This document shows, piece by piece, positions 3,719-47,395 of a DNA stretch of 64,000 bases. The notes below the pieces were generated by a model. The model was not told where the DNA came from. It saw only the letters and a program-made list of their open reading frames with translations, and searched no databases. Position numbers and translations under genes: made by a program. How positions within the stretch are numbered: position 1 is the first letter of the stretch; every line of letters begins with the position of its first letter. Source of the stretch: an uncultured Nitrospiraceae bacterium (GTDB lineage: Bacteria; Nitrospirota; Thermodesulfovibrionia; Thermodesulfovibrionales; UBA6898). The stretch covers positions 384,001 to 448,000 of the forward strand of contig CAWEQH010000010.1 of the NCBI GenBank assembly GCA_963811165.1, given 5' to 3'.

Positions 3719-4139
3719 CTAACCCCTCTATACATATCTCCCTTCGGTTATCTCCGATATCCTTTAGACGGACCCTTATGAAATCCGCTGTCAGAGACCC
3801 GAGCTTCTCGGCCCATTCTATAACCGCTACGGAATCCCTCCCGAGACAATCCCATATTCCGGTATTATCGACGTCCTCTTCTTTTTCCACCCTGTACAGA
3901 TCTATGTGGAAAAAAGGCGGGACACTGCAATACTCAGCTATTATCGTAAAGCTGGCGCTCGTCACGTCCCGGCCGCAAATGCCGAAGGCCCTCGCGATGC
4001 CCCTTACAACGGTTGTCTTGCCTGTCCCGAGATCTCCATAAAGCGCCACGACATCACCTGCCTTCAACAACCTTCCGAGTTCATACCCGGCCTCCTCGGT
4101 CTCAGCAGGACTATTACTTATCCGCTTCACCCATGGCAC
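3678..4139 (-). CDS. tsaE: tRNA threonylcarbamoyladenosine biosynthesis ATPase TsaE
   Basis: GDLGTGKTT, HIDLYR, IEW motifs. Confidence 0.92.
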   Translation of the reverse strand: MPWVKRISNSPAETEEAGYELGRLLKAGDVVALYGDLGTGKTTVVRGIARAFGICGRDVTSASFTIIAEYCSVPPFFHIDLYRVEKEEDVDNTGIWDCLGRDSVAVIEWAEKLGSLTADFIRVRLKDIGDNRREICIEGLDEENRHNQQTRQT

Positions 4140-4572
4140 CTTTTATCACTTCCATCTTGCCAACAATACCTACCACTTTGCCGGAACTGATGACTGGGAG
4201 CAGATGCACACCTTTTTCAGACATGATAGTGGCTATTTCCTGAAGCGTTGTCTCGGGATCTACAGTAATTACCTCGCGTGTACATATTTCCGAAACCCTT
4301 GAAGCGGACATCCTCTGTATCTCTTTCTCCATCGATGATGCACCGAGGGGAATGAAAGCGTCAAAAAGTCTTATTATAGTAGGTATATGCAATCTACCGC
4401 TCTGCTTTATCATATCGTTTTCGGTCACCACGCCGAAGAGCTTCTGCTCAGCATCGATCACGGGGACCCCGCTAATCCCTCTTTCAATAAAGAGTCTTCC
4501 CAGTTCCTCGACCGTAGTATCTGGAGATACCGTGGTCACTACAGCGCTCATTATGTCCTTGGCCTTTATCAT
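4114..4572 (-). CDS. CBS domain-pair protein
   Basis: Two CBS repeats (ISGVPV..GVVT; VHLLPV..GIV). Confidence 0.9.
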   Translation of the reverse strand: MIKAKDIMSAVVTTVSPDTTVEELGRLFIERGISGVPVIDAEQKLFGVVTENDMIKQSGRLHIPTIIRLFDAFIPLGASSMEKEIQRMSASRVSEICTREVITVDPETTLQEIATIMSEKGVHLLPVISSGKVVGIVGKMEVIKGAMGEADK

Positions 4573-6253: not shown

Positions 6254-8275
6254 TTAAACTGTGACTCCCTTTTCAGTCTCCTTTAACCAAAGGAGTCTTG
6301 ATCCGTTTATCGCAGACCTATTGATGTCTTCCGCAAATTTCTCCGCGTCGATATCGAGGTCTCTCTCCCTTTTAAACGGATTGAAGGCGGCCTTGACCTT
6401 AGTCTTAAGCGCCTTCTTCACGTCAGTCTCCTTCACCTTTTTCAGGGAAACACCCGCGGCCTCTGCCAGGCCGATAAATATGTCGGCGTGTGAAATTGAT
6501 TCCCCGGCGGGATTGACAGCCTTCTTCACCTCTTTTAATCTTCCAAGGTAATCGACGATAGTTCCTTCCGATTCAAGTGCCGGAGCTGCCGGCAAGAATA
6601 CATCGGCCTCCCTTGCCAGATCGGTCAGATGGGAGCCTTGAACAACCAGGAACTTTGTGTCGGGTCTCTTACCCACGGGAACCTCACCGATCACATAAAG
6701 AACTTGCGTCTGCGATCCCAGGATATCCTTGAACTTCTTTCCCTCAGAGGTAAAGCCCATGAGCACAACCCCTTTTGCGTTGGCCTCATAAGGGACTGAA
6801 ACGGCATCCCCCTTGATCAACGAAAGATTTGCGGCCGCTTTGTACAGAGACGGCGACGCCAGGATCACCGGTGTCTTCGCGGCGATAAAAAGGTCCGCGG
6901 CAGCCATAGCAGCATCGCTGGGATCTATATGCGCAAGGGCCTCGATCATCTCTTTCGGTGCTTTAATACCCTTTGAAATCACCGCCTGAGCGAGCTGTTT
7001 GAGCATCTCCACCTCATCGCCCCTAAGCGTCTGGGTTGCGGCCGAAGAAATCCTCGGCTCGCCGGAGTTGATAACAAGAAGCTTCGACCTGCCGTCATTC
7101 ACTCTCTTTCTGATAACGGCGTCCAATGCGGGCAGGACCCTCGACCACTGGTCGGGGGCGGTTCCCACGAGGACGAAGAGATCGGCCTCCCCCATATCTG
7201 AGGGGCCTGACTTCATCGCATCATAATCCGAATACAGGGTAAGTGAGGAATCGAAGTTCTTCGTCTTCACCACCTCCACCGCGAGCTTTTTAAGAACAAT
7301 AGCGTCCTCGTTGAGGATATTTGCACTCGTAACAAATGCCGCATCGGAACCGGCGGCCTTGAGCTTCGCTGCAACCGTCTCAATGGCGTCTGACCACGTA
7401 GTCTCTTGCAGTTCGCCGTTGACTCTCTTCATGGGTATTTTCAGCCGCGTCTCGCTGCGCAGACTATCAAAGCCATACCTTCCTGTAGCGCACAAATATT
7501 TCTCCACAGAGCCCTCTGCCGCCCCGGAATTAATCTTTACGACCTCACCGTCCTTCGTGCTGACGGTAATACTACAGCCGTTGCCGCAGGAAAGACATGT
7601 CGAAGCGACCTTATCGTATTCCCACTCTCTCCCCTTTCTCCAGCGGTCCGCTTCGAGCAGCGCGTTGACCGGACAGGCATCAACACAACTTCCGCAGAAC
7701 GTGCATGATGACTCCTGAAGGGGTTTGTCGTTGGCAGTCACTACCTTTGCGCCGACCCCCCTCCCAGAAAATTCCAGCACGTTTGTGCCCTGGGCCTTGC
7801 ATACCCTTACACATCTGCTGCAGAGGACGCAATAATCGGGGTCCCGCTTGATGAAGGGATTAGCTGCATCCACAGGGTATCCCGTCTTTTTCCTCGTGAA
7901 ATTTGATTCCTTTATCTCAAAATCATATGCATACTGCTGGAGATTGCAGACACCAGCCTTTGTGCAGGTCATACAGTCAAGGGGATGCATGGAGAGGATA
8001 AGGTCAATTACGAACTTCCTCACTTCCTGCACCTTCTCGGTCTTCGTATTGACCACCATGCCCTCTTTGGCCTTGGTTGTACAACTGATCATGGGAGATT
8101 TCATACCCTCTATCTCCACAAGACATAGCCTGCATGCCCCGACACCCTTCATGCCCTTTAAATAGCAGAGGTTCGGGATATGAATTCCAGCGGTTGCAGC
8201 TGCATCGATAAGGTTTGTACCTTCGGCAGTCTGGATCTCCTTGCCGTCTATAGTAAGATTAACCAATTTACTCAT
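6254..8275 (-). CDS. NuoG/FdhA-like Fe-S subunit (HydA/BfuA-type N-terminus) with degenerate molybdopterin-oxidoreductase fold
   Basis: [2Fe-2S] GACRLC, HxxxCxxC, two ferredoxin motifs, CLSCGNGC...C; no Cys/Sec-His at the FdhF catalytic position and no H-cluster motifs. Confidence 0.85.
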   Translation of the reverse strand: MSKLVNLTIDGKEIQTAEGTNLIDAAATAGIHIPNLCYLKGMKGVGACRLCLVEIEGMKSPMISCTTKAKEGMVVNTKTEKVQEVRKFVIDLILSMHPLDCMTCTKAGVCNLQQYAYDFEIKESNFTRKKTGYPVDAANPFIKRDPDYCVLCSRCVRVCKAQGTNVLEFSGRGVGAKVVTANDKPLQESSCTFCGSCVDACPVNALLEADRWRKGREWEYDKVASTCLSCGNGCSITVSTKDGEVVKINSGAAEGSVEKYLCATGRYGFDSLRSETRLKIPMKRVNGELQETTWSDAIETVAAKLKAAGSDAAFVTSANILNEDAIVLKKLAVEVVKTKNFDSSLTLYSDYDAMKSGPSDMGEADLFVLVGTAPDQWSRVLPALDAVIRKRVNDGRSKLLVINSGEPRISSAATQTLRGDEVEMLKQLAQAVISKGIKAPKEMIEALAHIDPSDAAMAAADLFIAAKTPVILASPSLYKAAANLSLIKGDAVSVPYEANAKGVVLMGFTSEGKKFKDILGSQTQVLYVIGEVPVGKRPDTKFLVVQGSHLTDLAREADVFLPAAPALESEGTIVDYLGRLKEVKKAVNPAGESISHADIFIGLAEAAGVSLKKVKETDVKKALKTKVKAAFNPFKRERDLDIDAEKFAEDINRSAINGSRLLWLKETEKGVTV

Positions 8276-8287
8276 TAAAACCTCCGT

Positions 8288-8899
8288 CTATAAAATATTC
8301 TTGTTTTGTACACGAACAGGCTCGCTGTTCTTTGCGTCGACAATGACGATCGCCCCGGTCGGACATACCGGCATACAGTCGCCGCATTTGACACACCGTT
8401 TCTGGCGGATCTCGAAGGAAAAATATCCGCCACGGAAGGGCTTTGCCTTTTCGCCATGGATCGCCTGATGCTTGCACGCATCTTTGCAGATACCGCAGAC
8501 AATGCATTTTGCGGGTACGACCCTGTACTCGATGAGTGCCTTGCACTCTTTTTCCGGGCATGCGCCTTCGATATGCTTCCTAAACACGTCAGTACCCATC
8601 CAGTCCATAATGAACCGTGCCGTATCCTTGCCTTTCTTACATAAAGAGCCTTCCAGCATCTGTACCGCAATCCTGTTCAGGGCAGCAAGGTCGACTTCGG
8701 CTCCCTTTCCCTCTATTATATTTTGAAGCCTCACCTTCGCCTCATAACTTCCAAGGGAGCAAGGAAGACAGCGGCCGCACATCGGCCCGGACAAGAACGC
8801 CTCGGTATAATAAAGCGCACGCTGCACTGCACACTTTTTTTCTTCCGCCAGCTTCTTTATATCCTCTACTTTGAGTTCCTTTGTTTCGGTCCTTGTCAT
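8288..8899 (-). CDS. Stand-alone NuoF/HydB C-terminal Fe-S module plus 2x[4Fe-4S] ferredoxin
   Basis: CGRCLPC...SLC, HIEGACPEKEC, CIVCGICKDAC, CVKCGDCMPVCP. Confidence 0.85.
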   Translation of the reverse strand: MTRTETKELKVEDIKKLAEEKKCAVQRALYYTEAFLSGPMCGRCLPCSLGSYEAKVRLQNIIEGKGAEVDLAALNRIAVQMLEGSLCKKGKDTARFIMDWMGTDVFRKHIEGACPEKECKALIEYRVVPAKCIVCGICKDACKHQAIHGEKAKPFRGGYFSFEIRQKRCVKCGDCMPVCPTGAIVIVDAKNSEPVRVQNKNIL

Positions 8900-8908
8900 G
8901 CCCCCTCC

Positions 8909-11248
8909 TTAATACATGTCTTCAGCCATATAAATGACTTCGGGAAGGAGATATGATACAAGGTCGCGGTATGAGATCATGCCGATGATCTTTTCGTCCT
9001 CCGTGATCGGCAGGTGTCTGATCTTCTTTTCCGACATAAGATGGACCGCAACGCCGATGTCGACAGATCCGTCCAGGGTGATGGGTTTAGAGCTCATGAC
9101 CGATCCCATGACCGCATCTGTAAACGATATCTTCTTTGCAAAACAGTGCATGATATCGCGCTCCGTAAAGATGCCGACCAGTCGTCCGTCTTCATCCATT
9201 ATAAGGATCGAACCGACGCTATTGCCGTCCATGATGGTGACCGCATCGGCCAGTTTGCAATCCTTCTTGCATGTGACCATCTTCGTAGGCTTTGATGTGA
9301 TGACGTCCTTCAGTGTCATTCGTGCCCTCCTTTCAAGTACTTCGATATTCTCAGTAGGTATTCTGAATTGTTCTTCGAGTTTGATGACGCTTTGCTTGCG
9401 TATCTTGACCGCGCCCACGGGACAGGCCTGATAACATGCCTTGCACTTCTGGCAATAGCCCTGGTCGATATGATAAATTTCCCGCGTCTCGGTGACCGCA
9501 TCGTAAGAGCACGCCTGTTTGCAAAGACCGCACCTGATGCACTCGGCCTGGTTTATTACGAACACGCCCATGCCCTTGCATACCTTTGCGCTACAGTAGT
9601 TGTCGTATATGTGTTCTTCATACTCGTTCCTGAAATACTTCAGCGTGCTCAGCACAGGGTTCGGCGCGCTCTGCCCCAGTCCGCAGAGGGACCCTTTCTG
9701 GATGTGTTTGCCGATCTCTATAAGCTTCTCAATGTCCCCATGCTCTCCCCTTCCCGAGGTTATGCGTTCGAGGATCTGAAGCATCTGATACGTCCCGATC
9801 CTGCAGGGCGGGCACTTGCCGCATGATTCAGATTGGGTGAAGGAAAGAAAATATTTCGCCACGTCCACCATGCAGGTATCTTCGTCGAGGACCACCATGC
9901 CTCCTGATCCCATCATCGAACCGACCTTGCTCAACGAGTCGAAATCAACCGGCAGGTCAAGATATTTGCCGGGGATGCAGCCTCCAGATGGTCCGCCCGT
10001 CTGGATTGCCTTGAAGTTCTTGTCACCCAGGATGCCGCCGCCTATATCGAATATTATCTCCCTGAGTGTCATGCCCATCGGCACTTCCACGAGGCCGGTA
10101 TTTTTCACCTTCCCTGTAAGGGCAAAGACTTTTGTGCCGGGAGAGGTCTCAGTCCCGATGCTCCTGAACCAGTCCGCCCCCTTCTCTATGATCGGCGCGA
10201 CACAGGCATATGTCTCTATGTTATTTAGGTTACTAGGGTACCCCCATACGCCGCCGCCAGGCTCGGAGAGTCTCGGCGGTCTCGGCCTCGGAAATCCCCG
10301 CTCTCCTTCTATTGAAGCAACAAGCGCGGTAGACTCACCACAGACAAAGGCCCCGGCTCCTTCTCGGACATCAAGATGGAAACTAAAGTCGGTGCCAAGA
10401 ATGTTGTCGCCGAGGAGTCCGAGTTCCTCCGCCTGCCGTATCGCAGTCTGGAGGTTCTTGACGGCAAGGGGATACTCGTGCCTCACATAGACAAAACCGT
10501 ACTGAGCACCTATTGCATAGGCACAAAGGAGCATTCCCTCAAAAAGACTATGCGGGTCTCCTTCCATGATCGCCCTGTCCATGAATGCGCCGGGGTCTCC
10601 CTCGTCTCCGTTGGCTATAACAAATTTTATTTTTCCGGGGGCTCCCTTGCTGTGTTTCCACTTTTTCCCCGCAGGAAATCCCGCGCCGCCGCGTCCTCTG
10701 AGATTAGCCTTATCGATTTCGTTAAGGACGCCTTCTGGGTTCATGGAAGCGAGCGCCTTTTCGAGCGCCCTATACCCCCCGACGGCTATGTAATGGGTTA
10801 TATCCGTAGGATCGATCTTGTCGTTGTTTCTGAGCGCTATTCTCACCTGCTTTTTGTAAAAGGGCAGTTCTGCCATCTCGAAAACGGGGTCCTTCAGGAA
10901 GTTCTCCCGGTAGAGGCCCTGCCGATAGGGAATTCCGCCAGTAAAGGTGTAGCTCACCAGGCTTGCTGATTGCTCCGGTTTTACTCTCTGATAATAGATG
11001 CCGGCAGGCTCCACCTTGATGTTGGGACCTTTTTGGCACATCCCCTGGCACCCAGTCTTTACAATATCGACCTCCAATCCTTTTCTGGCGGCCTCGCCTT
11101 CTAACGATTCAACCACCTTATAAGCCCCGGATGCCGTACACGCCGTACCGCAACAGACTCGCGCCCGCGCTTTGTCGGGCTGAAAAAGCTCCTTTGCCAG
11201 CTTCTCCCTTAACAGCCTCAGGTCTTCAATTTTGTTTAGTTTTTCCAT
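8909..11248 (-). CDS. NuoF/HydB-like FMN/NAD-binding subunit with C-terminal 2x[4Fe-4S] and fused CBS pair
   Basis: GRGGAGFP, NGDEGDPGAFMDR, GGPSGG, SCGKCPPCR, ferredoxin motifs, last ~135 aa form a CBS pair. Confidence 0.92.
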   Translation of the reverse strand: MEKLNKIEDLRLLREKLAKELFQPDKARARVCCGTACTASGAYKVVESLEGEAARKGLEVDIVKTGCQGMCQKGPNIKVEPAGIYYQRVKPEQSASLVSYTFTGGIPYRQGLYRENFLKDPVFEMAELPFYKKQVRIALRNNDKIDPTDITHYIAVGGYRALEKALASMNPEGVLNEIDKANLRGRGGAGFPAGKKWKHSKGAPGKIKFVIANGDEGDPGAFMDRAIMEGDPHSLFEGMLLCAYAIGAQYGFVYVRHEYPLAVKNLQTAIRQAEELGLLGDNILGTDFSFHLDVREGAGAFVCGESTALVASIEGERGFPRPRPPRLSEPGGGVWGYPSNLNNIETYACVAPIIEKGADWFRSIGTETSPGTKVFALTGKVKNTGLVEVPMGMTLREIIFDIGGGILGDKNFKAIQTGGPSGGCIPGKYLDLPVDFDSLSKVGSMMGSGGMVVLDEDTCMVDVAKYFLSFTQSESCGKCPPCRIGTYQMLQILERITSGRGEHGDIEKLIEIGKHIQKGSLCGLGQSAPNPVLSTLKYFRNEYEEHIYDNYCSAKVCKGMGVFVINQAECIRCGLCKQACSYDAVTETREIYHIDQGYCQKCKACYQACPVGAVKIRKQSVIKLEEQFRIPTENIEVLERRARMTLKDVITSKPTKMVTCKKDCKLADAVTIMDGNSVGSILIMDEDGRLVGIFTERDIMHCFAKKISFTDAVMGSVMSSKPITLDGSVDIGVAVHLMSEKKIRHLPITEDEKIIGMISYRDLVSYLLPEVIYMAEDMY

Positions 11249-11256
11249 GACACCAC

Positions 11257-11754
11257 CTATTCCCTGACCATATCGACGACTTCGTCTATCTTCTTTGCGG
11301 AAAGTTCACCTATAACCTCGTTATTCACGGTGACGACAGGAGCGAGGCCGCAGCATCCGACGCAACCCACAGTCTCTAGGGTCATTGACATGTCCGCGGT
11401 CGTCTCCCCTTCTTTCACATCGAATTCCTCTTCAAGCTTCTCGATAACTTTTGAAGCGCCCCTCACATGACATGCAGTTCCCACGCAGACGCATACGATG
11501 TTCTTGCCTCTGGGCTTAAAATAGAAGTGTTTGTAAAAGGATGCGGTACTATAAATTTCGGCAAGAGGGATAGTAAGGTTCTTCGATAATTCCCTGAGCT
11601 TTTCCTCGGGCAGATAATTGTGCTCCTTCTGTATTTCCTGAAGCGCGTGTATAAGAAAGCCCCTGCTTTTTTGTCCTTCATTCAGGGCATCGCCTATCAT
11701 TTTATAGTGGGCATCTATGGTCAATTCCTCAGTCTTAAACTCAGTCTTCATCAC
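11257..11754 (-). CDS. NuoE/HydC-like [2Fe-2S] subunit
   Basis: CVGTACHVRG, CVGCC. Confidence 0.93.
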   Translation of the reverse strand: MMKTEFKTEELTIDAHYKMIGDALNEGQKSRGFLIHALQEIQKEHNYLPEEKLRELSKNLTIPLAEIYSTASFYKHFYFKPRGKNIVCVCVGTACHVRGASKVIEKLEEEFDVKEGETTADMSMTLETVGCVGCCGLAPVVTVNNEVIGELSAKKIDEVVDMVRE

Positions 11755-12134: not shown

Positions 12135-12764
12135 TTATGGTTCTATCATTACGAGTGTAACCAGCATCGCAAGGGACCAAACGATGTCAGAGAGGCCTAT
12201 CTGAAGGTCACAGGTGGAATCGAAGAGCAGATCCGCCCTGGCCTGAAATTCCTCATCTTCAAGCCATAAGATCAGAGTAATCGGTACCCTCGGAAGAGGG
12301 GAGAGAATCAGGGAGGCATCTCCATAGCTCGCCTCCACAGCTCCGAATTCAAGGCCGCGCTTGATGAACTTGTCTTTGTCTCCGCCATAGATAGCAGCAA
12401 CCCGGTCAAGTGGCAGGAGATGGGTGCCGGTGAAAAAACGTTGTCCTCCCTTGACGTCGATAGGCCTGATGAGCCTGCCGGTAGAATGGATGTCCTTTGC
12501 ACTGGACAAATACCAAAGGAGAGATAGTCTGAAAAAATCCTTGAACTTATCGAGGAAGATAATGCTCTTTGGAGAATCGCTGTATATTTCTCTCTCACTC
12601 ACAGAAACACAAAAATCGATCCCGAACGATTTTATTATATAGAGCCCTTTCTCCTCGTCATGTCTCACAGAGGCCCTCCGACAGGCGTCTTTCACAGGCA
12701 GGTCCGCGAGGATTTTCCAGGCTTTATCCTCTCCGTTAACGGTCTTTATAGGAACAAGCTCCAT
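12135..12764 (-). CDS. DUF3786 domain protein
   Basis: GG..FF.G.H, PLPRVP...ILW..DEEF.A...LLFD pattern; family often lies near acs clusters. Confidence 0.8.
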   Translation of the reverse strand: MELVPIKTVNGEDKAWKILADLPVKDACRRASVRHDEEKGLYIIKSFGIDFCVSVSEREIYSDSPKSIIFLDKFKDFFRLSLLWYLSSAKDIHSTGRLIRPIDVKGGQRFFTGTHLLPLDRVAAIYGGDKDKFIKRGLEFGAVEASYGDASLILSPLPRVPITLILWLEDEEFQARADLLFDSTCDLQIGLSDIVWSLAMLVTLVMIEP

Positions 12765-12927: not shown

Positions 12928-13791
12928 GTGTACAAGATTCTGAAAAAGGAGGTCCTCAGTGATGTGACGAAACTCATGGACATTGAGGCGCCTCATGTTG
13001 CCAGGAAGGCGAAGGCAGGACAGTTCGTCATTGTCCGCATCGACGAGCAGGGAGAAAGAATACCATTGACCATCGCCGATTACAGCCGGGAAGCAGGGAC
13101 GATAACCATCATATTCCAGGAAGTCGGAAAGTCGACCTCTCACCTTGGCAAACTCCAGCCCGGAGACTCGATATCAACCTTCGTTGGGCCTCTCGGGCAT
13201 CCGACAGAGATTAGAAACTACGGTACCGTCATCTGTATGGGAGGCGGAGTCGGAGTGGCACCGATATTTCCCATAGCACGTTCGCTCAAAGAAGCGGGAA
13301 ATGAGGTCATATCAATCATTGGTGCGCGCAACAAGGATCTCTTGTTTTGGGAAGACAAGATGAGGGCAGTTTCCGACGAGCTAATCGTCTGCACTGACGA
13401 CGGTTCCCACGGCAGAAAGTCTCTCGTTACAGAACCTTTGAAGGAGCTCCTCGAAAATCAGAGGAAGAAAATTTCTCATATTTGGGCTATTGGCCCGGCG
13501 ATAATGATGAAATTTGTCTCCCAGACCACAAAACCATTCAATGTGCCCACTACTGTCAGTCTTAATACAATCATGATAGATGGGACCGGCATGTGCGGCG
13601 GATGCCGAGTGCTTTTAGAGGACGGCGCCCAGTTTGTATGCGTAGACGGTCCCGAATTCGATGGCCACAAGGTGGACTGGGGCAATCTTCTGTCACGCCT
13701 CCAATTCTACAAAGAAGAAGAGCGAAAGGCGATGGAGCATTGGGAACACAAATGTAAACTTGACGCTGCCGTCGCAGAAGGGAGTAAGTAA
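12928..13791 (+). CDS. nfnA: NADH-dependent reduced ferredoxin:NADP+ oxidoreductase small subunit
   Basis: GQFVIVR, ERIPLTI, GPLG, DGTGMCGGCRV...CVDGPEF. Confidence 0.9.
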   Translation: MYKILKKEVLSDVTKLMDIEAPHVARKAKAGQFVIVRIDEQGERIPLTIADYSREAGTITIIFQEVGKSTSHLGKLQPGDSISTFVGPLGHPTEIRNYGTVICMGGGVGVAPIFPIARSLKEAGNEVISIIGARNKDLLFWEDKMRAVSDELIVCTDDGSHGRKSLVTEPLKELLENQRKKISHIWAIGPAIMMKFVSQTTKPFNVPTTVSLNTIMIDGTGMCGGCRVLLEDGAQFVCVDGPEFDGHKVDWGNLLSRLQFYKEEERKAMEHWEHKCKLDAAVAEGSK

Positions 13792-15233
13792 TGGCTGAAC
13801 TCACTCAAAAGGATCGCTTGAAGATAAAAAGGCATGACATGCCTAACCAGACCCCTGCGCAAAGAAGAGCAAATTATGTGGAGGTCGCCCTCGGCTATAC
13901 GAACGAAACAGCGATAGAGGAGGCAGAACGCTGTCTTCAGTGCAAGGACCCTCATTGCGTCAAAGGATGCCCGGTCGGAGTACTCATACCTCAGTTTATA
14001 AAAGCCTTGCGGGAAGGAGACATGATCAAGGCTGTTGAATGGATGAAGGTGAAGAACAACCTTCCCGCCATCTGCGGCAGGGTATGTCCCCAGGAGGTAC
14101 AGTGTGAAGGCAACTGTATCCTGGCAAAAAAGGGAGAGGCAGTCGCAATAGGCAGGCTGGAACGTTTCGTTGGCGACTATGAGCTGGCCCATCGCACCTG
14201 TCCCCTCATAAAGGCCCCGGCAACCGGCAAACGCGTGGCTGTGGTCGGATCAGGCCCCTCAGGTTTGACCTGCGCAGTCGATCTCGGCAGAGAAGGTCAT
14301 GACGTCACCATATTCGAATCTCTCCACGGTCCGGGCGGAGTTCTTGTCTATGGCATTCCCGAATTCCGTCTCCCTAAGGCAGTGGTGCACGGAGAGATCA
14401 GTTATGCGGTAGAATGTTTGGGAATAACAATTCAGAAAGACCATGTCATAGGTCGTACATTCACTCTTGACGAACTCCTTTCCGAATATGATGCAGTGTT
14501 CCTCGGCACAGGGGCGGGCCTGCCTTCCTTCATGCGCATACCGGGCATAAACCTCAACGGTGTAATGTCTGCAAACGAATTCCTGACCCGTGTCAATCTT
14601 ATGAAGGCATACCGTTTCCCTGAATTCGATACCCCGGTAAAAGTGGGAAAAAAGGTTGCTGTCTTGGGTGCAGGCAACGTGGCGATGGATGCTGTCCGTT
14701 GCAGCCTTCGGCTGCAGACCCTCCAGGCCCCCGAAGGCGATAAGAGAGAAGCCCATATTGTCTACCGCCGCTCACGTGATGAAGTTCCGGCAAGGGCGGA
14801 GGAATTCCATCATGCCGAGGAGGAGGGGGTAATCTTTGATTTCCTTACCAATCCGGTGGAGATACTGGGCGACGATAAAGGGAATGTCCGAGGCCTCCGC
14901 TGCATACGCATGGACCTTGGAGAGCCCGACAAGTCCGGGCGGAGACAACCGGTGCCGATCAAAGGATCGGAATTCGAGATGGAAATGGACACGGTGATCA
15001 TGGCTCTCGGTACAAGCCCTAATCCTCTTGTCTTCATTGATGCCGAAGGTCTCGAACGCACGAAACATGGTACGGCCGTAGCCGACCTGGAGTCCGGCAG
15101 GACTAAGAAGCAACGCGTATGGGCAGGCGGAGACGTAGTAACAGGCGCTGCCACAGTCATAAGCGCCATGGGTGCCGGCAAACGAGCAGCGGCAGATATT
15201 AACAAGTTTCTTAAAGGAGAAATAGCCTGGTAA
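13791..15233 (+). CDS. nfnB: NADH-dependent reduced ferredoxin:NADP+ oxidoreductase large subunit (GltD-like)
   Basis: RCLQC...CVKGCPV, CGRVCPQE.QCE, GSGPSG, YGIPEFRLP, YRR; translationally coupled to nfnA. Confidence 0.9.
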   Translation: MAELTQKDRLKIKRHDMPNQTPAQRRANYVEVALGYTNETAIEEAERCLQCKDPHCVKGCPVGVLIPQFIKALREGDMIKAVEWMKVKNNLPAICGRVCPQEVQCEGNCILAKKGEAVAIGRLERFVGDYELAHRTCPLIKAPATGKRVAVVGSGPSGLTCAVDLGREGHDVTIFESLHGPGGVLVYGIPEFRLPKAVVHGEISYAVECLGITIQKDHVIGRTFTLDELLSEYDAVFLGTGAGLPSFMRIPGINLNGVMSANEFLTRVNLMKAYRFPEFDTPVKVGKKVAVLGAGNVAMDAVRCSLRLQTLQAPEGDKREAHIVYRRSRDEVPARAEEFHHAEEEGVIFDFLTNPVEILGDDKGNVRGLRCIRMDLGEPDKSGRRQPVPIKGSEFEMEMDTVIMALGTSPNPLVFIDAEGLERTKHGTAVADLESGRTKKQRVWAGGDVVTGAATVISAMGAGKRAAADINKFLKGEIAW

Positions 15234-15983: not shown

Positions 15984-16030
15984 ACTAAAAAAGAGGGGAC
16001 CGTCTCTGAGACGGTCCCCTCTTTTTTAGT
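15984..16030. terminator. Bidirectional intrinsic terminator between the CBS gene and cooS
   Basis: Perfect 23-bp inverted repeat ACTAAAAAAGAGGGGACCGTCTC-T-GAGACGGTCCCCTCTTTTTTAGT with A/T tails on both sides. Confidence 0.9.
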
Positions 16031-16044: not shown

Positions 16045-18048
16045 TTAATAGATGCCCATATGGGGCTTGGCAGCTTTTTCGATATCGCGTCTTGCAGCCA
16101 TATCCATGAGTACCTTCTCGGTCCCGAATTTACCCGGCTCGTACTTCCTCAGCTTGAGGGCGGTCCTTGCCTTGTCAATATAATCGAGCGCAAGCGCCAG
16201 CATCTTCTCCGGGTCGGGCTCGAAATGGATTGCACCCCTGTAACGTTCGAACCAGACCTCGGTCATAATCCTTGTGACCTCCTTGCTCGCCTCTACCGGA
16301 GACCCGCCGCCCAAGATAACTGGAATGCCCGAAGCCGCACAGTACATGCCGATGGCCACTGCCTTCTCGGTTACCCACTCAGGTGCGATGCCTACCGCCG
16401 GCATACCTCCGATCTCGTCGGAAAGTCCGCCTTCCGCAGCCATTGCGCTTGCGATGGTGAGGATTCTCGTATTGTCAACACAGGAGCCAAGGTGAAGGAT
16501 GGGAGGAATACCGATAGCCTCGCAGACCTCTCTGAGTCCCGGACCGGCGTTTTCAAGCGCATTTTCCGGTGTGAGATAGCCGGCACCCGCGAATGCCGCA
16601 GAACTGCAACCGGTGGAGACGATAAGCACATCGTTTTTGATCAGTTCTGTTGCAAGAAATTTATGGACGCCTGTTGAAGGGAACCTCGGGTTGTCGCATC
16701 CTACGAGTCCGACAACACCCCTGACCCTGCCTGCAGCGATCGCATCGTTAAGAGGCCTGAAAGAACCGCGCCACTTTCCGCCCTGCATGTATTCGATGTA
16801 CTCGTGAGAGAACCCTGCAATGGCCGGAACCCGGGCCGTAGTGTGACTTCCCTTCGTCGTACGGTTGGGGTAATTGTCTATCGCCATCATTACGATCTCT
16901 CGTGCCACTTCCTTTGCCCTATGCTCGTCGAAGGCGATGTGGATAGCGCCGGGGATTTTGACCTTTTCCGAAGTGGTTATAACCTTGGTATGGAACTTCT
17001 TCGCCACGCCGACGATGGCCGGCATGATACACTGGATATCAACAGTAAAGGCATCGATGAGTCCGGTCATAATGGCAGGCTCCTGGTTCGTAAATCCTCC
17101 GGCTGTCGGTATGCCATGCCTCATAAGCACTTCATTGGCCGTGCAGCACAAGCCGCCGACATTAATCCCTTTGGCGCCCTTTTCCTTTGCATGAGCAATC
17201 ATGGCGGGCTCACCGACGACATCGATGATCATCTCGGCAAGAGAAGGTTCGTGACCGTGGATTACAATATTCACTTCGTCTTCCTTGAATATGCCAAGGC
17301 TCGCCTCAGCTTTCACCGGCATCGGGGTGCCGAAGAGGATATCGGAAATATCGGTAGAAATCATACTGCCGGCCCACCCGTCGGCCAAAGAGCACCTCAG
17401 TGCTTGGGCAAGAATTGAATCGGGGTCCGCGTCCATTCCCATAGTCGTCCTGTCCATAGTCTCTGCAATCTCCCGGTCGCAACCCCTCGGAGTGACTCCA
17501 TATTTTTTCCATCTCTCCTGGGTCTTCTTGGGTGCGCGCACAACATAACTTACTTCTCCCTTCTGCCTTCCAAAGTCCTCCATGAACCTGGTAGCCACAT
17601 CCTTGGCGACATCCAATACGGGTCTTCCTTCAAATTCGATATTAAGTATGCCCGCAACCCTATACAATTTTCTCACGTCCTTGATCTGGAAATCCTTGGC
17701 CTCACCCTGGGCAACCGCAAGAAGGGTGAAGACCATATCTCTTCCGTGGTCGCCGTGACAAGCAGATCCTCCTGCTGCCATCCTCGCAATATAGCGCGCT
17801 GCAACCGTAGAAAGGTCTGCACCGCATACACCTTTTGCAAACTTTTCGGCATCCTTGCCCGTCAGCCTGCAGGGACCCATATGGCAACTCTTACAGCATG
17901 CACCACTATGCCCGATGGGACAGGGCTTCATCTTCTCGGCCCTGTCAAAACAGGTCTCGCACTCTTCAAGCATGCCCCACTCAAGTATGGCCTCGGCAGC
18001 CGGCTCTGCGCTTCTTACTCTTTTTTCCTTTTTCTCTTCCTTACTCAT
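16045..18048 (-). CDS. cooS: Anaerobic Ni-Fe carbon monoxide dehydrogenase catalytic subunit
   Basis: CCxxCxMGPC, HGHEP, GLCCTANE, VDIQC, GC, TGC, GSCVDN, EKA motifs. Confidence 0.96.
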   Translation of the reverse strand: MSKEEKKEKRVRSAEPAAEAILEWGMLEECETCFDRAEKMKPCPIGHSGACCKSCHMGPCRLTGKDAEKFAKGVCGADLSTVAARYIARMAAGGSACHGDHGRDMVFTLLAVAQGEAKDFQIKDVRKLYRVAGILNIEFEGRPVLDVAKDVATRFMEDFGRQKGEVSYVVRAPKKTQERWKKYGVTPRGCDREIAETMDRTTMGMDADPDSILAQALRCSLADGWAGSMISTDISDILFGTPMPVKAEASLGIFKEDEVNIVIHGHEPSLAEMIIDVVGEPAMIAHAKEKGAKGINVGGLCCTANEVLMRHGIPTAGGFTNQEPAIMTGLIDAFTVDIQCIMPAIVGVAKKFHTKVITTSEKVKIPGAIHIAFDEHRAKEVAREIVMMAIDNYPNRTTKGSHTTARVPAIAGFSHEYIEYMQGGKWRGSFRPLNDAIAAGRVRGVVGLVGCDNPRFPSTGVHKFLATELIKNDVLIVSTGCSSAAFAGAGYLTPENALENAGPGLREVCEAIGIPPILHLGSCVDNTRILTIASAMAAEGGLSDEIGGMPAVGIAPEWVTEKAVAIGMYCAASGIPVILGGGSPVEASKEVTRIMTEVWFERYRGAIHFEPDPEKMLALALDYIDKARTALKLRKYEPGKFGTEKVLMDMAARRDIEKAAKPHMGIY

Positions 18049-18130: not shown

Positions 18131-20329
18131 TTATAACATCGGCTCCATTTCAAGGGCAGGATGACCGACCTTCGTCAAGTGTTCAAGAAGCTTTTCTGAC
18201 TCCTCGCATACGCTCTCGTCCGCTATCTTGTCAAGGAGATCGGGGACCCCGGCCTCTTCAGCTCTCTTTTTGAAGTCCTCGGCAATCCTCTCTTTCAATG
18301 ACTTAGGCATCCAGACGATCCTCTTGATGCCGCCGTCCCCAAAAAGGAACTTCTTGCTCGCCACGAAATTCACTCCTACACCCATAAACCCCGGGGTCTG
18401 GGCGCCGCCGCCGACGGTGCCCGCGAGGGTGGAGAACTTCATGCCCACAGGTGTCATTCCGGTATGTCCCCTGTGCACGAGCATGACGCCGTTTGCCTCA
18501 GGGATGATTGCGATAATGCACTCGAAACATCCGCAAGAGGTCATAGGGTTTTCCATGAGCGTATAGAGATTCATTGTTTCGACAGCTCCCCCAGTAGCCT
18601 TTTTCAGATACTCATCGGAGCCGCTATAACGTCCATACCGCGAATCCAGGCACTCGCCCTTAGCGATCGGCTGGTTTCCGCCTGTTGGATCGATCTCATA
18701 TGCCGCCTTTCCGTCAAGCCAGTTGTATGCGCCGCAGAGCCCCAGTCTCTCAGGCGTAATCACGCAGACATGACTCGGTGCAAAAGACTGGCAGAGGAGG
18801 CAGGAGTAAAATGTATCAACCGCTTCGTCGGTAAGGCTCCCGAGCCGCTGGTCTCGTTCCCTGTAGGCCTGGCGAGCATGCCCAAGATGCTCCTTGACGT
18901 CCTTATCGTCAATGAAGAGCGTTACCTGAACCTTGTCCACAATGGACCTGAACCGGTGATGGGTCATCGCGGCATTCAATATGCCAAGGTGTTCGAGGGT
19001 AAAGCCATCTTTCTTAGCGTTGTTGCTTATCCTTACCCAGTTGATATCCCGCTGGCCCATATGCCAGACACCCTGGGCCTCGTTGATGTTTGAATGGATC
19101 TTCCTTTCGATGACCGACTCGAAGTCCTTCTGCATCTTTCTGCCCGCGACATCAATGAGCATGCCCAAGGGTAGTTGACCGCCCTTTTCAAACCGCTCTT
19201 GCCAGTTTTCGCCGACAATGATGACCTTATTGTCCTCGATCTCGTCCATCTCCCTCATCCGCACCCACTCAAAAGCAGCAGTCCGCTGTCCGCCGAATTC
19301 AATAAACGTATCTTCCTTCCTGATCCGTTCTCCTTCAAAGGCGGGGCCGAATGCAACGGGGATCGGCGGTTTTTCGACCGTTATTTTAAGACCTCTCATC
19401 TCGATCGCCTTCTGCACGATCTTGGTATGGTCGAACTCCTTATCGACTTCCTCATAGGTGCATACGCCGGTGGGATGGATGACGGGAATGTCCGTATCCC
19501 CAATTGCGGGGAATCCCATATTGATGGCGCCCGCGCCCGTGGACCACTTGATATCGTCGAGTTCGCCGAGCACTATTGCAAAGGCGAACACCCTGTCCTT
19601 CTGGTACTTAAGATGTTCTTTGAAATCGCCGGGTTTCTTTCCGCCAAAGATAAGGGACGCCCTTATCGCCCAGTCAAGGGCATAGAGCGTATGTTCAGTG
19701 TCTGGACCAAGGGGCACTATTCTGGTATCCCAACCGAGTTCCACTCCCTTTCTCAGAAGCTGTTTCGTCACGCTGTCCCCTTTGGACTGGCCTGAGAGAA
19801 AGGTCAGTATGTTCTTCCCCTGAAGTTCCCTGCAGATATTTACCGCAATGTCATCCGTCGGTGCGGCTCCTAGGATTGCAGCAAATCCCGGCATTGTGCC
19901 GTCAACGAGCTGGATGCCGAGGTTTCTCTGGATCGTGTCGGAGATAAAACCATTATAGACGTATCCGGTTTCAGGGTCCTTGCAAGGTTCGAGACCTTGT
20001 ATATACCTGAGGGCCAGCAGAATCTCCTCTGCAAACAGAGTTCCCATGCCCGAATCAAGGGCTTCGCCGAGATACGGTTTCCAGATATTTTCATCCGGCA
20101 CGTCATGGAGCAGTTCTTTGGCAAATCCCAGAGCAACGTTCATGTCGCCGAGGGTCTTTACCGGAAAACCGGTCATTGCATAAATCATGGGAAGATGAAA
20201 GGCGGTATCCGGAAATTCGAACGCAAAATCCTTTCCCTTTTCAGCCATCGTCTTCTGAAGCAGATCCTCTGCCTGCTTGACCAGTTTGTGCGTACCTTTA
20301 ATAACTGCGGTCGCTATTAACTTGGACAT
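18131..20329 (-). CDS. acsB: Acetyl-CoA synthase (bacterial type, with N-terminal domain)
   Basis: SCLLCQSFAP.HVC...GLCG, PMTSCGCFE A-cluster motifs; FPDTAF N-terminus. Confidence 0.96.
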   Translation of the reverse strand: MSKLIATAVIKGTHKLVKQAEDLLQKTMAEKGKDFAFEFPDTAFHLPMIYAMTGFPVKTLGDMNVALGFAKELLHDVPDENIWKPYLGEALDSGMGTLFAEEILLALRYIQGLEPCKDPETGYVYNGFISDTIQRNLGIQLVDGTMPGFAAILGAAPTDDIAVNICRELQGKNILTFLSGQSKGDSVTKQLLRKGVELGWDTRIVPLGPDTEHTLYALDWAIRASLIFGGKKPGDFKEHLKYQKDRVFAFAIVLGELDDIKWSTGAGAINMGFPAIGDTDIPVIHPTGVCTYEEVDKEFDHTKIVQKAIEMRGLKITVEKPPIPVAFGPAFEGERIRKEDTFIEFGGQRTAAFEWVRMREMDEIEDNKVIIVGENWQERFEKGGQLPLGMLIDVAGRKMQKDFESVIERKIHSNINEAQGVWHMGQRDINWVRISNNAKKDGFTLEHLGILNAAMTHHRFRSIVDKVQVTLFIDDKDVKEHLGHARQAYRERDQRLGSLTDEAVDTFYSCLLCQSFAPSHVCVITPERLGLCGAYNWLDGKAAYEIDPTGGNQPIAKGECLDSRYGRYSGSDEYLKKATGGAVETMNLYTLMENPMTSCGCFECIIAIIPEANGVMLVHRGHTGMTPVGMKFSTLAGTVGGGAQTPGFMGVGVNFVASKKFLFGDGGIKRIVWMPKSLKERIAEDFKKRAEEAGVPDLLDKIADESVCEESEKLLEHLTKVGHPALEMEPML

Positions 20330-20386
20330 TCTCCAACCTCCTGGTTGTTAATATTTATCTATTATATACTATAAAAAGTATATTTC

Positions 20387-21730
20387 CTAGCTTGCTCGCG
20401 CTTTGAGGAAAGCGGGAATCGCATTCGCCTCCCTTGGTCCTACCGTTATCTTCCATCCGGGAAGCTTATCCTCAATAGAACCGCTCAATATAGCGACGTA
20501 TCCAGGGATAATAAGTTCCTTGTGGGATATCTCCTTATCGACTCCGCTCTCCGTAATAAACTGCGCTATCTTCGATGCGGTGAATTTTCCCGCCGCCCAT
20601 CCAGTCAGGACCGAAAGTCCCTCGCAATCTAACACTGCCAGCCTACTCGGCACCTTGCTGTTCTCTATTTCTCCGGAAACAATAAAGTAAGTGAGGGAGA
20701 AGTTTGAGGTAATGAAGAGCGGAGCCTCCGCCTTCGCATCCCCTATAGTATAGATTTTCTGTTCGACCTGCATCGGTACCTGCGGGTCGGTATAGATGTT
20801 CTGGCGCAGGGTAAACAGGGCAAGGTTCTTCCATTTTTCGATGCTGCTTAAAACGACTATTGAAGCATATTTGGCTATGCTGATAACCGCAACAAGGGCC
20901 TCATGAAGGCTATTTTCACGCTGCGCAAAATTGATTACAGGATATCCCACGGGCTTGAAATTCTTTTTAATCGCGGCTCTTCTCATAAGAGTGTTATGTT
21001 CCAAGATGTCCTTTGCTTTTCTCGCTCCCGAGTCAATCACCATGTCTTCGACGCCGAGGCCTTTGATCTTTTCCGTGAGATCGCAGAGTTCATCGATGCC
21101 GTTTCCGGCTACGCCGAGGACCGCCTTATTCGTCTTGGCGACAGTCGCCATCGCCTCGAAATTTGATGCGTTCGCTCCATAAACGATCGGCTTCTTCCCC
21201 GCAAACAGCTTAACTGCCGCCTCTGCAGCCTTGGGATCCGCAGTGCAAAGGATAACCGGAACATCCGGAGCTTTGGCGGCAACCACCTTTGCCGCAGCTT
21301 CGAACTTACCCGCATCATTCGATGCATTCGTTATCGCGATAGAGTTTATCCTCAACTTTTGACCGACACGGTCGATTTCCGACCCTATCACCTCCTCCAC
21401 AAGTGTGGTTATTTCGCCCTCTGAAGCAGTGTCCTTCACCTCAACAGCAAAGGCACAGGGATTCACAAATTTCTTCTCGTGTCTGAACAGAACAGTTTCT
21501 TCTCCCATTTTTACTGCCAAGCCCCCCACTCCAAAGGTTATTGGCTTGACAGGCGGGGCAGACGCCTCGCCGAGCACCCTCTTTGCCTCTTCGGACACAT
21601 CCGGGCATGAATCAAGGGTCGCCTGTCGCTGGGCAAGCTTCATCGCAAAGGCAAGACAGGTGGGATGTCCGCATTTCTTACAGTTTGTCTTCGGTAACAG
21701 CTTAAATATTTCAACGCCTGATAACGCCAT
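20387..21730 (-). CDS. acsC: Corrinoid iron-sulfur protein large subunit
   Basis: LPKTNCKKCGHPTCLAFA, IYTDPQ.PM, GPREA. Confidence 0.96.
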   Translation of the reverse strand: MALSGVEIFKLLPKTNCKKCGHPTCLAFAMKLAQRQATLDSCPDVSEEAKRVLGEASAPPVKPITFGVGGLAVKMGEETVLFRHEKKFVNPCAFAVEVKDTASEGEITTLVEEVIGSEIDRVGQKLRINSIAITNASNDAGKFEAAAKVVAAKAPDVPVILCTADPKAAEAAVKLFAGKKPIVYGANASNFEAMATVAKTNKAVLGVAGNGIDELCDLTEKIKGLGVEDMVIDSGARKAKDILEHNTLMRRAAIKKNFKPVGYPVINFAQRENSLHEALVAVISIAKYASIVVLSSIEKWKNLALFTLRQNIYTDPQVPMQVEQKIYTIGDAKAEAPLFITSNFSLTYFIVSGEIENSKVPSRLAVLDCEGLSVLTGWAAGKFTASKIAQFITESGVDKEISHKELIIPGYVAILSGSIEDKLPGWKITVGPREANAIPAFLKARAS

Positions 21731-21744
21731 TTGATTGACCTCCG

Positions 21745-22686
21745 TTACATTAGTTCTTCAATGGTTTTTTGGACGGCCTCGGCCGCCCTTGGATGTCTCA
21801 TAATAATCAACTCAGCACCAGCAACAAGCAAGGCGGTAGCGGTGACGGCCTCCCACGCAATTCCGCGTTCCTCAACGGACCCCCACTGAGGAAGATCTGT
21901 CTCGGATGCCTGAGTCTCCTTGACCTTCCAGACATACATTCCGACGTCGCCCATTAAAGGCGGCTGCATTGTGGCATCATTCTGCGTCAGGGCGGCGAGT
22001 CGTATCCTCTCCATAACCGAATAGGTATATTCGAGCCCATACCCAAGTGCAGAGCACATCGGGTCCGTTATCAGTTTTTCCTTGTCGAAACCCATCTGAC
22101 CTATTAGGATATTAAGCTGTTTCGAGAGGTTTATATCGAGCTCAGACATAGCAATAAGCTTATGATTGTTTGCCATTGCCGCAGCGGCTATTGTCTTGTA
22201 GTTCGCCTCCTGCGCCTTGCCGATAATGCAGTTTTTTCCCTTTGCCGCCTCGGCAGCAGCCACGAGCACCGACGAATCCTTCTCAGGATGGTTGCTTCCG
22301 AGGACAACAAGGGGCACATTAATGGCCCCAAGAACGTCCTTCACTGTCTTTGCCGCATCTTCAGGCGAACGGTTTTCCCTGTCCGGATGGGTACCGATCA
22401 GCCTAAGGGCGACGGCCTTAGTCTTAAGCTCATCCTGACAAAATTTCGCCCACTTAACCGGATCATCCGAGACCCCCTCAAATGGCTTCTTGACATTCTC
22501 CGGCCAGTCAGCAGGCGGCACATCCTGGATCTCCAGTGCAATGACCGGACTGTTAGGGGTAACTCCCTCAAAGGAATGAAATGGAAGAACGTTTTCTCCT
22601 CCAATCGTACCTGAACTTCCCCCGGAGCCGATAGTTACGGGATATACCTTTCCGGGATATGTTTCCTTCGCTGGTGTAAAAGCCAT
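21745..22686 (-). CDS. acsD: Corrinoid iron-sulfur protein small subunit
   Basis: DINLSKQLN, ALGYGLEYTYSVMERIRLAAL, MRHP. Confidence 0.95.
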   Translation of the reverse strand: MAFTPAKETYPGKVYPVTIGSGGSSGTIGGENVLPFHSFEGVTPNSPVIALEIQDVPPADWPENVKKPFEGVSDDPVKWAKFCQDELKTKAVALRLIGTHPDRENRSPEDAAKTVKDVLGAINVPLVVLGSNHPEKDSSVLVAAAEAAKGKNCIIGKAQEANYKTIAAAAMANNHKLIAMSELDINLSKQLNILIGQMGFDKEKLITDPMCSALGYGLEYTYSVMERIRLAALTQNDATMQPPLMGDVGMYVWKVKETQASETDLPQWGSVEERGIAWEAVTATALLVAGAELIIMRHPRAAEAVQKTIEELM

Positions 22687-22705
22687 CTTATCCTCCTATA
22701 ATCAG

Positions 22706-22738
22706 TGTCAGTATTTAGTGTCAGTGTGTTATGTCAGT
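22706..22738. repeat. Three TGTCAGT heptamers at 13-bp period in the acsE-acsD spacer
   Basis: Copies at 22706, 22719 and 22732. Confidence 0.75.
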
Positions 22739-22774
22739 CCGGATTCATTACCCCGGCCGACACGGCGTTTCTCA

Positions 22775-23632
22775 TCACATTTCGAGATACGAATGGGCGT
22801 AAAGGGTATTGCCCATAATGACATCAAGCGTCTTTTTTATCTCAGCCATTTTTTTTGCGTCATCAAGTTTCTTCCCTGCCAGAACATCGTCAAACAGTTT
22901 CTTTTCACTTAAGGCCTCTGCCATCTCGTGAGCGTCGGCAATGGCGGAAGTCAGTCCTGCATTCATAAGCATTAAAAAATAGTATTTATTCAATATCGGT
23001 CTTACGTGCTTAGGGCAGCCATTGGAAATATTGCTCAGGCCAACTACTGTTTTCATGGGGGGATCGTTCATCTCCTGAAACATCCTAATAGCCTTAATAA
23101 CTTTCATGGCGTGGTCCTGGGAAGTTGCAATCTGAAGGACCAACGGATCAAGATACAAGTCTTCAAGAGGCACCCCATACTCCATTGCCCTTGCCATTAT
23201 ATCCGCGGCGATTGCAGCTCTCTCCTCGGCGTCAGCAGGAAGTCCGCCTTTCCCGACCGTCAGCCCAATGACCTGCGCTTTGTATTTTGCTCCAAGTTCG
23301 AGAATTGGAAATCTCTCCGGATCGTTGGATGTTGAATTAATTAAAGCCCTGCCCCACTGATTATTATGGACCTTCAGTCCTGCCTCTATCGCCTTTGCAT
23401 TTGTCGTGTCAAGGCATAACGGAAGAGGGACAACCTCTTGAATTGTCGTGACCATCCACTGCATCAAATCCTCTCCACCGTCTTCTGCAGGACCTATATT
23501 GGCATCTATTACGCCGGAGCCTTCTTTCCACTGCCGGGTCGCGATTTCCTGTATCGGCCCCTTATCTTTCTTCATCATCGCTTCCCTGACCCTCTTTGCT
23601 ATGATGCTCAACTTTTCGCCTATTATCAGCAT
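22775..23632 (-). CDS. acsE: Methyltetrahydrofolate:corrinoid/iron-sulfur protein methyltransferase
   Basis: Pterin-binding fold: IIGE, CLDTTN, INS, DPLV, GLSNISNG. Confidence 0.93.
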   Translation of the reverse strand: MLIIGEKLSIIAKRVREAMMKKDKGPIQEIATRQWKEGSGVIDANIGPAEDGGEDLMQWMVTTIQEVVPLPLCLDTTNAKAIEAGLKVHNNQWGRALINSTSNDPERFPILELGAKYKAQVIGLTVGKGGLPADAEERAAIAADIMARAMEYGVPLEDLYLDPLVLQIATSQDHAMKVIKAIRMFQEMNDPPMKTVVGLSNISNGCPKHVRPILNKYYFLMLMNAGLTSAIADAHEMAEALSEKKLFDDVLAGKKLDDAKKMAEIKKTLDVIMGNTLYAHSYLEM

Positions 23633-25454: not shown

Positions 25455-25783
25455 AAAACCTCCTTTTTCTTTCATCCGGCAAAAGCCCTATTACAAAAAA
25501 AACGCTCTTTCTCACCTCCGTTTCAAAGATTGACCCCGAAAAAAACATACTGGCTTAAGTTATTCATTTTCCCCGATTCATCATATGATCTTCGTCATAT
25601 AACTATTTCCTTGGCGGTTGACCTCATAGTGAAGACCACTGCAGTTACTTTGTAATTGTAATTTTAGATTATATGTAAAATAAGTCAATAGGGCGGAAAA
25701 TTACGCGTTTCAGTCTTTTATAAAATTATGACGAAATTCAGAGGGAGGATATGTCGGCTCGCTAGATACTATTCGTTTTGTTA

Positions 25784-47292: not shown

Positions 47293-47395
47293 ACTTAATC
47301 TCGCCGGCAAGGTGCCCCGGCCCAGGGGGCCTGCGGCACGCCGAAATAATTATAGCATACCATCGGCCTCCCTTTAGCGCCCACGGGCATTCCGA

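Follow-up and report, generated by a model that had tools for sequence, protein, structure and literature searches.

In a 64,000-nucleotide stretch of DNA from an uncultured Nitrospiraceae bacterium (the window; positions 384,001 to 448,000 of contig CAWEQH010000010.1, assembly GCA_963811165.1), four minus-strand open reading frames (ORFs) in the order bfuC-bfuB-bfuX-bfuA encode a predicted electron-bifurcating module of the Bfu type. Judging by sequence comparison, this module probably serves the CO dehydrogenase of the CO dehydrogenase/acetyl-CoA synthase complex (CODH/ACS) as its bifurcating unit. Since it stays beside, moves with and vanishes with the ACS-type CODH, it is likely to split or merge the electrons of CO/CO2 between NADH and ferredoxin.

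The source genome measures 3.66 Mb and is 95% complete; its acs genes sit in the window, and, read from the sequence starts, it carries sat, aprBA and qmo-like genes. Named homologues belong to Thermodesulfovibrionales, Candidatus Sulfobium and Dissulfurispira thermophila, which makes that order the likely one of the host; the module is one of sulfate-reducing Nitrospirota. Scanning 64 ORFs of the window and searching their proteins with Pfam profiles upheld two observations of an earlier note on this DNA, namely that the four genes are co-oriented with gaps of 8-12 nt (8, 9 and 12 nt) and that no hydrogenase, formate dehydrogenase (FDH) or membrane Nuo gene is adjacent, none being found among the 64 ORFs. 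Locus (L), genome (G; G000 is the source genome), family (f) and genus (g56) labels are those of this analysis, as is the name bfuX, which is distinct from the thioredoxin-like BfuD of the literature.

Architecture of the four subunits

In the accessible part of the paper defining the Bfu family (PMC9304861), BfuB is marked by an FMN/NADH site, the ligands of clusters B1, B3, B4 and B5 and a Cys3/His B2 site, and BfuC by cluster C1. All of these are found here: BfuB has the FMN/NADH site and the four ligand sets (B5, C32/C37/C67/C71; B1, C476/479/482/522) together with a B2 site, C459/H546/C552/C557, whose His is conserved and which may hold Zn or a [2Fe-2S] cluster, and BfuC combines PF01257 with the four Cys of the C1 [2Fe-2S] cluster. 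GAFMDR, GGPSG, DFDSL and two [4Fe-4S] motifs complete the set, which is kept across 108 distinct BfuB-like entries save paralogues and truncated ones. The marks of a bifurcating beta subunit given by Losey et al. in 2020 (A/E232-x-M234, F367 and GGPSG, in the portion of PMC7311640 available to us) recur as A221-F-M223, F436 and GGPSG at 418. Consistent with this, bifurcating beta subunits in the PDB score 742-606 bits against BfuB, versus at most 381 bits for NuoF/FdsB. Motif set and scores thus bear out the earlier view that this NuoF-like protein is of the HydB/BfuB type rather than a complex I NuoF. The best PDB match, at 742 bits, is HydB of the NiFe hydrogenase of Acetomicrobium mobile, a clade 49 enzyme; as the sole pointer, this match hints at a clade 49 placement for BfuB. 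C476 of the A. mobile protein corresponds, as read from the alignment, to Thr497 of BfuB.

The Pfam search also revealed a CBS pair at the C-terminus of BfuB, which the earlier note had missed. Of the 78 loci scored in an 80-locus set (see below), 54 have the pair fused to BfuB, 5 have it separate or partial and 19 lack it. A Shine-Dalgarno (SD)-like motif precedes the first Met of the CBS pair in 51/55 fused genes, compared with 57/1193 other internal ATGs, and this enrichment makes it likely that a free 136-aa CBS protein is also produced from the internal start at 9319. A free CBS paralogue, 61% identical to the BfuB tail, lies upstream of the genome's Fdh-Bfu operon. Ten loci (L046, L051, L059, L072, L088, L095, L122, L145, L153 and L213) hold two to three diverged tandem bfuB genes with intact motifs alongside one bfuC and one bfuA, which suggests hetero-oligomers with different B subunits.

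BfuX is a duplicate (30% identity) of BfuB residues ~455-635, that is, of the arm after the flavin domain, and has no flavin site; this origin too had escaped the earlier note. Its 15 Cys and one His ligands are invariant in 22/22 orthologues, and the top 11 Foldseek matches of its model are all C-termini of HydB/NfnB/StnB-type chains. The family is small (32 clusters at E<=1e-30) and includes BfuX-BfuB fusions in five clusters (also at L055) and a homologue in D. thermophila that is 71% identical. bfuA directly follows bfuX in 77/80 loci. When 10 divergent BfuX proteins were looked up, a taxon label was obtained for one cluster, Nitrospirota; P0136, P0138, P0140 and P0145 are divergent BfuX-like proteins (174-184 aa) that stand alone. 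A complex prediction with two CooS(1-400) chains and BfuX(5-195), the C-terminal domain of CooS being left off, scored 0.00, which speaks neither for nor against contact.

As to BfuA, the ligands of clusters A1-A5 are invariant in 22/22 orthologues, and the alignment has no Cys or Sec at the metal-ligand position of FDH. The genome's own FdhA carries TGA/Sec followed by RGQNN there, whereas BfuA lacks both this ligand and the Arg; the Cys/Sec ligand, catalytic His and Arg expected of a type 1 Fdh-Bfu are thus not found together in BfuA. Neither an H-cluster nor a Pfam match to the molybdopterin guanine dinucleotide-binding C-terminal domain was detected, nor, by the same scan, the GltD-like FAD domain that marks StnABC/NfnABC; for FeFe-HydABC, a search of the 95%-complete genome gave no PF02906 match. 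Alignment and Pfam scan accordingly agree with the earlier statement that the large subunit has neither an H-cluster nor a Mo/W ligand. The BfuA model (mean predicted local distance difference test score 78, low in the Fe-S region) has as its highest template modeling score among the matches listed 0.70, with the cofactor-free NiFe-HydA of A. mobile (7t2r_A). The sequence comparisons support a Bfu-type core without a catalytic center of its own.

Association of the module with cooS

Gene neighborhoods were counted in the best 80 of 278 GTDB loci, in 62 of which one can see what lies upstream of bfuC; a second set of 61 relatives overlaps with these loci and was counted separately. Upstream of bfuC we find cooS in 42 of the 62 loci, nfnA or a DUF3786 gene in 12, acsB in 1, acsC in 1 and other genes in 6. 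A BfuA orthologue is present in 53/61 relatives, and in 39 of the 52 genomes with both genes bfuA lies <20 kb from acsB on one contig, the remaining 13 having them on different contigs. Variants of the arrangement place cooS between bfuX and bfuC (L088) or the module between acsC and acsB (L040/L089). A further case is family f19, distant within the same phylum, where the order is bfuC-B-X-A-cooS: of 38 genomes searched, 29 hold both bfuA and cooS, and in 29/29 cooS lies <1 kb from bfuA. In the five f19 genomes checked, four have acsB on another contig and one has it at a distance of 580 kb, and in G107 the cooS beside bfuA is the sole CooS-family match. Directly after acsB, in the place of cooS in other lineages, f19 loci L194-L198 have a bfuC'B'-fdhA operon.

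The same-genus loci L159-L163 (n = 5) read acsE-D-C-B-cooS-bfuC-B-X-A. From this comparison the arrangement in the window is derived: it appears as a rearranged copy in which nfnAB was inserted between cooS and the module, placing cooS 4.3 kb away with a DUF3786 gene, nfnAB and one CBS gene in between. The CODH gene thus shares a cluster with bfuABC, as in the published Codh-Bfu class, albeit with intervening genes in the window. The survey that the earlier note had proposed therefore does reveal conserved linkage. Its suggestion of a partner encoded in trans hardly holds, since the module genes directly follow cooS in most relatives, and of its two candidates CooS is strongly favored by the linkage, co-transfer and co-loss, whereas NfnAB is found at 23/80 loci and often stays where the module is lost.

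Transfer is seen at L114, a 368-kb contig recorded as Planctomycetota, where a Nitrospirota-type cooS-bfuC-B-X-A stands in front of a foreign acsB. Identity to Nitrospirota is 83% for CooS, 76% for BfuA and 72% for BfuX, compared with 55% for AcsB and 52% for AcsC. In trees, CooS and BfuA of L114 nest beside L042/L047, whereas its AcsB, on a long branch of unsure placement, does not. BfuX occurs in 0/40 relatives of L114, and the CooS proteins of 40 sampled members of its class are <=55% identical. We read this, from the sequences, as one event in which cooS and bfu moved as a single cassette into a Planctomycetota acs operon.

Conversely, two lineages that mostly keep acsB gave no match to either the ACS-type CooS or the module: family f10 (acsB kept in G045 and G057; 0/10 for both BfuX and CooS) and genus g56 (0/4 for both, acsB in 3/4). 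In G029 (90% complete), there is no acsB or cooS match and bfuA has a TAG at codon 81.

Features of the window are given in Table 1. SD spacing favors the ATG at 11751 over the ORF end at 11754 as the start of bfuC. The hairpin 3' of cooS is likely a bidirectional terminator, so that in the source genome cooS and bfu probably have separate transcripts. cooF is absent from the acs operon including cooS. A promoter scan of the window gave 16 sites versus 9.9+/-2.9 in shuffles, a difference that carries no information, and GC and GC3 of the window genes did not show a foreign island. Free CBS-pair genes lie on either side of the region (4114-4572 and 15495-15923). A multi-haem cytochrome c gene (24105-25475) precedes acsE, as it does in same-genus loci L159-L161, and a cooC-like gene (55481-56248) is 32 kb away from the acs genes. 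Elsewhere, glycyl-tRNA synthetase alpha occupies two overlapping frames (47448-48324; profile positions 1-107 and 107-278), indicating a frameshift or an assembly error, and 2-oxoacid:ferredoxin oxidoreductase alpha domains are spread over two adjacent ORFs (46227-47310).

Table 1. Coordinates of the bfu module and its neighbors in the window
Feature	Coordinates	Strand	Remarks
bfuA	6254..8275	-	673 aa; A1-A5 clusters, cofactor-free molybdopterin-fold domain, conserved C-terminal helix
bfuX	8288..8899	-	203 aa; flavin-less duplicate of BfuB C-terminal arm; B1, B2/Zn, B3 and B4 ligands kept
bfuB	8909..11248	-	779 aa; HydB-type FMN/NADH subunit with B1-B5 sites and C-terminal CBS pair
CBS pair of BfuB	8909..9319	-	internal start: in-frame ATG at 9319 with AGGAGG upstream
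bfuC	11257..11754	-	165 aa; NuoE/HydC-like, thioredoxin-like, one [2Fe-2S] (C1); PF01257, E 1e-45
DUF3786 gene	12135..12764	-	remains with nfnAB/cooS where the module is lost (L058, L199, L200)
nfnAB	12928..15233	+	divergent from bfuC; frequent, inconstant neighbor
Hairpin 3' of cooS	15985..16029		20 bp, T/A runs on both sides; pattern match only
cooS	16045..18048	-	CO dehydrogenase of the ACS type; ligands of the D-, B- and C-clusters present; likely partner
acsB, acsC, acsD, acsE	18131..23632	-	from the window scan

Evidence against the CO dehydrogenase and rival partners

Several observations weigh against CODH as the partner. ACS-type CODH can do without the module, whose presence is optional: cooS and acs occur without it alongside in G002, G046 and G188, cooS occurs without it in G161 and G202, and in families f16, f17, f21 and f27 all 11/11 inspected loci have an ACS-type CooS and no bfu gene. 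The module also strays from cooS. In G053 and G204 it follows acsB, with a divergent cooS elsewhere beside fdhA and por genes; in four f1 genomes (G010, G016, G024, G031) it has nfnAB beside it but the acs genes elsewhere, and in the f5 genomes G040 and G052 it is linked to neither. The window itself is mosaic, CooS/AcsB and BfuA having different nearest relatives, which means that strict co-evolution is not seen, and it has the terminator-like hairpin between cooS and bfu. No CooS fusion was found among longer BfuX homologues, although this is a weak test. Related genomes are not independent, and the counts perhaps reflect five or six independent events. Finally, motifs predict bifurcation without proving it, and gene order speaks for functional coupling, not for binding.

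At L217 and L218, the ACS-type cooS is divergent, carries an insertion and has fdhA, por-like genes and a gene for a small ferredoxin as neighbors; this neighborhood is possibly a second kind of CODH module.

Some of these exceptions suit the idea that the module, though part of the acetyl-CoA pathway regulon, never binds CODH and exchanges electrons solely through a diffusible carrier, as a simple NADH:ferredoxin-type diaphorase or as a low-potential supply for activation of ACS/CoFeSP. That it is optional, follows acsB in G053/G204 and lies between acsC and acsB in L040/L089, that relatives show mosaic exchange and that f16 has a 57-aa ferredoxin-like gene beside cooS in its stead are all in keeping with such a role. 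Yet the full bifurcating motif set, the f19 linkage to cooS away from acs and the three AcsV/RACo homologues already present in the source genome for activation make us consider it unlikely.

Another enzyme of the Wood-Ljungdahl pathway encoded elsewhere, either FDH or a methylene-tetrahydrofolate (THF) reductase complex of MetVF with a GltD-like/MvhD protein, is quite unlikely to be the partner. A bfuC'B'-fdhA operon does follow the module in L041, L087, L098 and L138, and the genome's MetVF-GltD/MvhD cluster has no obvious NADH input, but those fdhA genes have BfuBC of their own, it is cooS that is co-transferred and co-lost with the module, and no metF/metV match was found in the 120 loci L038-L157 save the genome's own metVF locus, L057. 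That locus (G000:C10:549486-553320) has metF-metV after a 700-aa GltD-like FAD/4Fe-4S/MvhD fusion, an unusual methylene-THF reductase partner. The genome holds two further Bfu-related operons. Operon 2 (L001; G000:C8:337330-343098) comprises a free CBS gene, bfuC, bfuB and a selenocysteine FdhA, its BfuB missing one B5 Cys and having Tyr at the Phe mark; the Bfu-like operon 3 (L002; G000:C1:501888-510338) has a response regulator fused to BfuC and an FDH-like large subunit, with anti-sigma-like and PHP-like genes downstream.

We see a slim chance that NfnAB or NADP(H) is the third partner, the module working with NfnB like a split NfnABC/StnABC transhydrogenase. Nine of the 23 loci with nfn genes have no acs/cooS in view, at least two Nfn types in several orientations are involved, and StnC/NfnA is among the PDB matches of BfuA. 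Against this, nfn is missing from 57/80 loci and was not seen at L114, nfnAB is still there where the module has been cleanly lost (L058, L060, L199, L200 and L211), and NfnA and NfnB are both intact and hence a complete enzyme alone.

It is most improbable that the module represents an NADH-input head detached from complex I, of the Nuo-Bfu type: BfuA has a NuoG-like fold and the accessible part of PMC9304861 lists Nitrospirae under Nuo-Bfu alone (clade 39), but both Nuo operons of the source genome have their own nuoEFG, no nuoD/H/L/M/N match occurs in L038-L157 or the 15 loci L179-L193, and the bfu genes do not lie inside a 14-gene nuo operon. The genome's other redox enzymes come with electron modules already, CooF and FNOR for the second CooS and dedicated NADH heads for FDH and for both complex I operons, a point in favor of the ACS-type CooS as partner. 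An RnfD match spans two frames (G000:C8:499799-500775).

Known relatives, a possible mechanism and its meaning

The closest likeness of a CODH-serving module is to Codh-Bfu of Acetohalobium arabaticum and Clostridium cellulovorans, in which BfuABC genes accompany a Ni-CODH gene and CO oxidation is proposed to reduce NAD+ and ferredoxin. This class, predicted by Schut et al. in 2022 and uncharacterized, comprises, in the accessible part of PMC9304861, four sequences, all from Firmicutes and in clade 49. Its BfuA is of type 2, without A3 and A5, and it has three extra Codh subunits. The Nitrospirota BfuA has A1-A5 throughout with a cofactor-free pterin fold, which is type 3-like, and the module differs further in its ACS-associated CooS, the lack of cooF, BfuX, the CBS pair and, in some genomes, tandem BfuB. 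The presence of A3 and A5, together with the different host, CODH type and subunits, argues for a variant of Codh-Bfu rather than a member of the published class. The claim of an undescribed system thus stands for the extra subunit BfuX, the A1-A5 BfuA and the tie to CODH/ACS, and falls insofar as a Codh-Bfu class had already been predicted in Firmicutes.

Other relatives share parts of the design. NiFe-HydABCSL of A. mobile (PDB 7T2R/7T30) provides both the best match of BfuB and, in HydA, a cofactor-free adaptor of similar size to BfuA, but the module lacks HydSL genes and its third substrate is likely CO/CO2, not H2. StnABC/NfnABC (Sporomusa ovata, Caldicellulosiruptor, Thermococcus sibiricus) has the same BfuBC core and a NuoG/Fdh-like domain without pterin, whereas BfuA lacks the GltD/NfnL-like FAD domain. 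In Candidatus Ethanoperedens, according to the available part of PMC11493965, an acetyl-CoA-cleaving CODH with a built-in F420 reductase is wired to a flavin module, giving it an acceptor of higher potential than ferredoxin; being of the archaeal Cdh type, with F420 and no Bfu module, it is a functional analogy only.

We did not find a bfuC-bfuB-bfuX-bfuA operon described in the literature searched, in which subscription papers are thinly covered and which included parts of PMC6344411, PMC5812927, PMC10203281, PMC11406978, PMC6895022, PMC7325909 and PMC12018979. As far as the accessible text goes, Inoue et al. in 2019 report NuoE/F/G-type COGs as enriched near Wood-Ljungdahl CODHs without assigning a complex, and Table S2 for Sulfobium has acsB and cooS and, for the terms searched, nuoF/nuoG rows of complex I size only. 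The parts of the Bfu literature consulted contain no such architecture as BfuX, the CBS pair or BfuB copies in tandem.

The overall reaction predicted for the module with CODH would be 2 CO + 2 H2O + NAD+ + 2 Fd(ox) <-> 2 CO2 + NADH + 2 Fd(red), with Fd standing for ferredoxin. Electrons would pass from the D-cluster of CODH to BfuA (A3-A5) and/or BfuX and on through A1 and B1 to FMN/C1, where they would be split, one branch leading to NAD+ and the other via B3/B4 to ferredoxin. BfuX could be a structural subunit or an extra wire in place of CooF, and the CBS pair may regulate activity through an adenine nucleotide. NfnAB uses NADH plus reduced ferredoxin; the adjacent enzyme would draw on both products to make NADPH, and this sharing would explain its repeated recruitment. 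More tentatively, and with the odds somewhat against it, one may picture an ancient Nitrospirota CODH/ACS-Bfu supercomplex as a bifurcating entry to the carbonyl branch, with BfuX as the hard wire and the CBS pair as an energy sensor that tunes it.

The available Table 1 of PMC9304861 gives potentials of -520 mV for CO, -280 mV for NAD and -500 mV for ferredoxin. The NAD/Fd mean is then -390 mV, which by calculation matches a CO2/CO ratio of ~2.6e4 versus ~5 for ferredoxin alone, so that acetyl-CoA oxidation could run at a CO/CO2 ratio ~5000-fold lower than with ferredoxin alone. If the synthesis of acetyl-CoA from CO is put at -38 kJ/mol, the CODH/ACS couple as a whole comes by calculation to ~-323 mV, between NAD and ferredoxin. 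Acetyl-CoA oxidation would meet a lower barrier with bifurcation, and with confurcation the reduced ferredoxin needed for CO2 fixation would fall by half.

If true, the predicted Codh-Bfu class would gain dozens of members over its four, and the named homologue in D. thermophila makes the class testable. Ferredoxin is usually taken to be the sole electron carrier of CODH/ACS; with a Bfu head, acetate oxidation and CO2 fixation would have a different energy balance in Thermodesulfovibrionales and in related Nitrospirota of groundwater and sediment.

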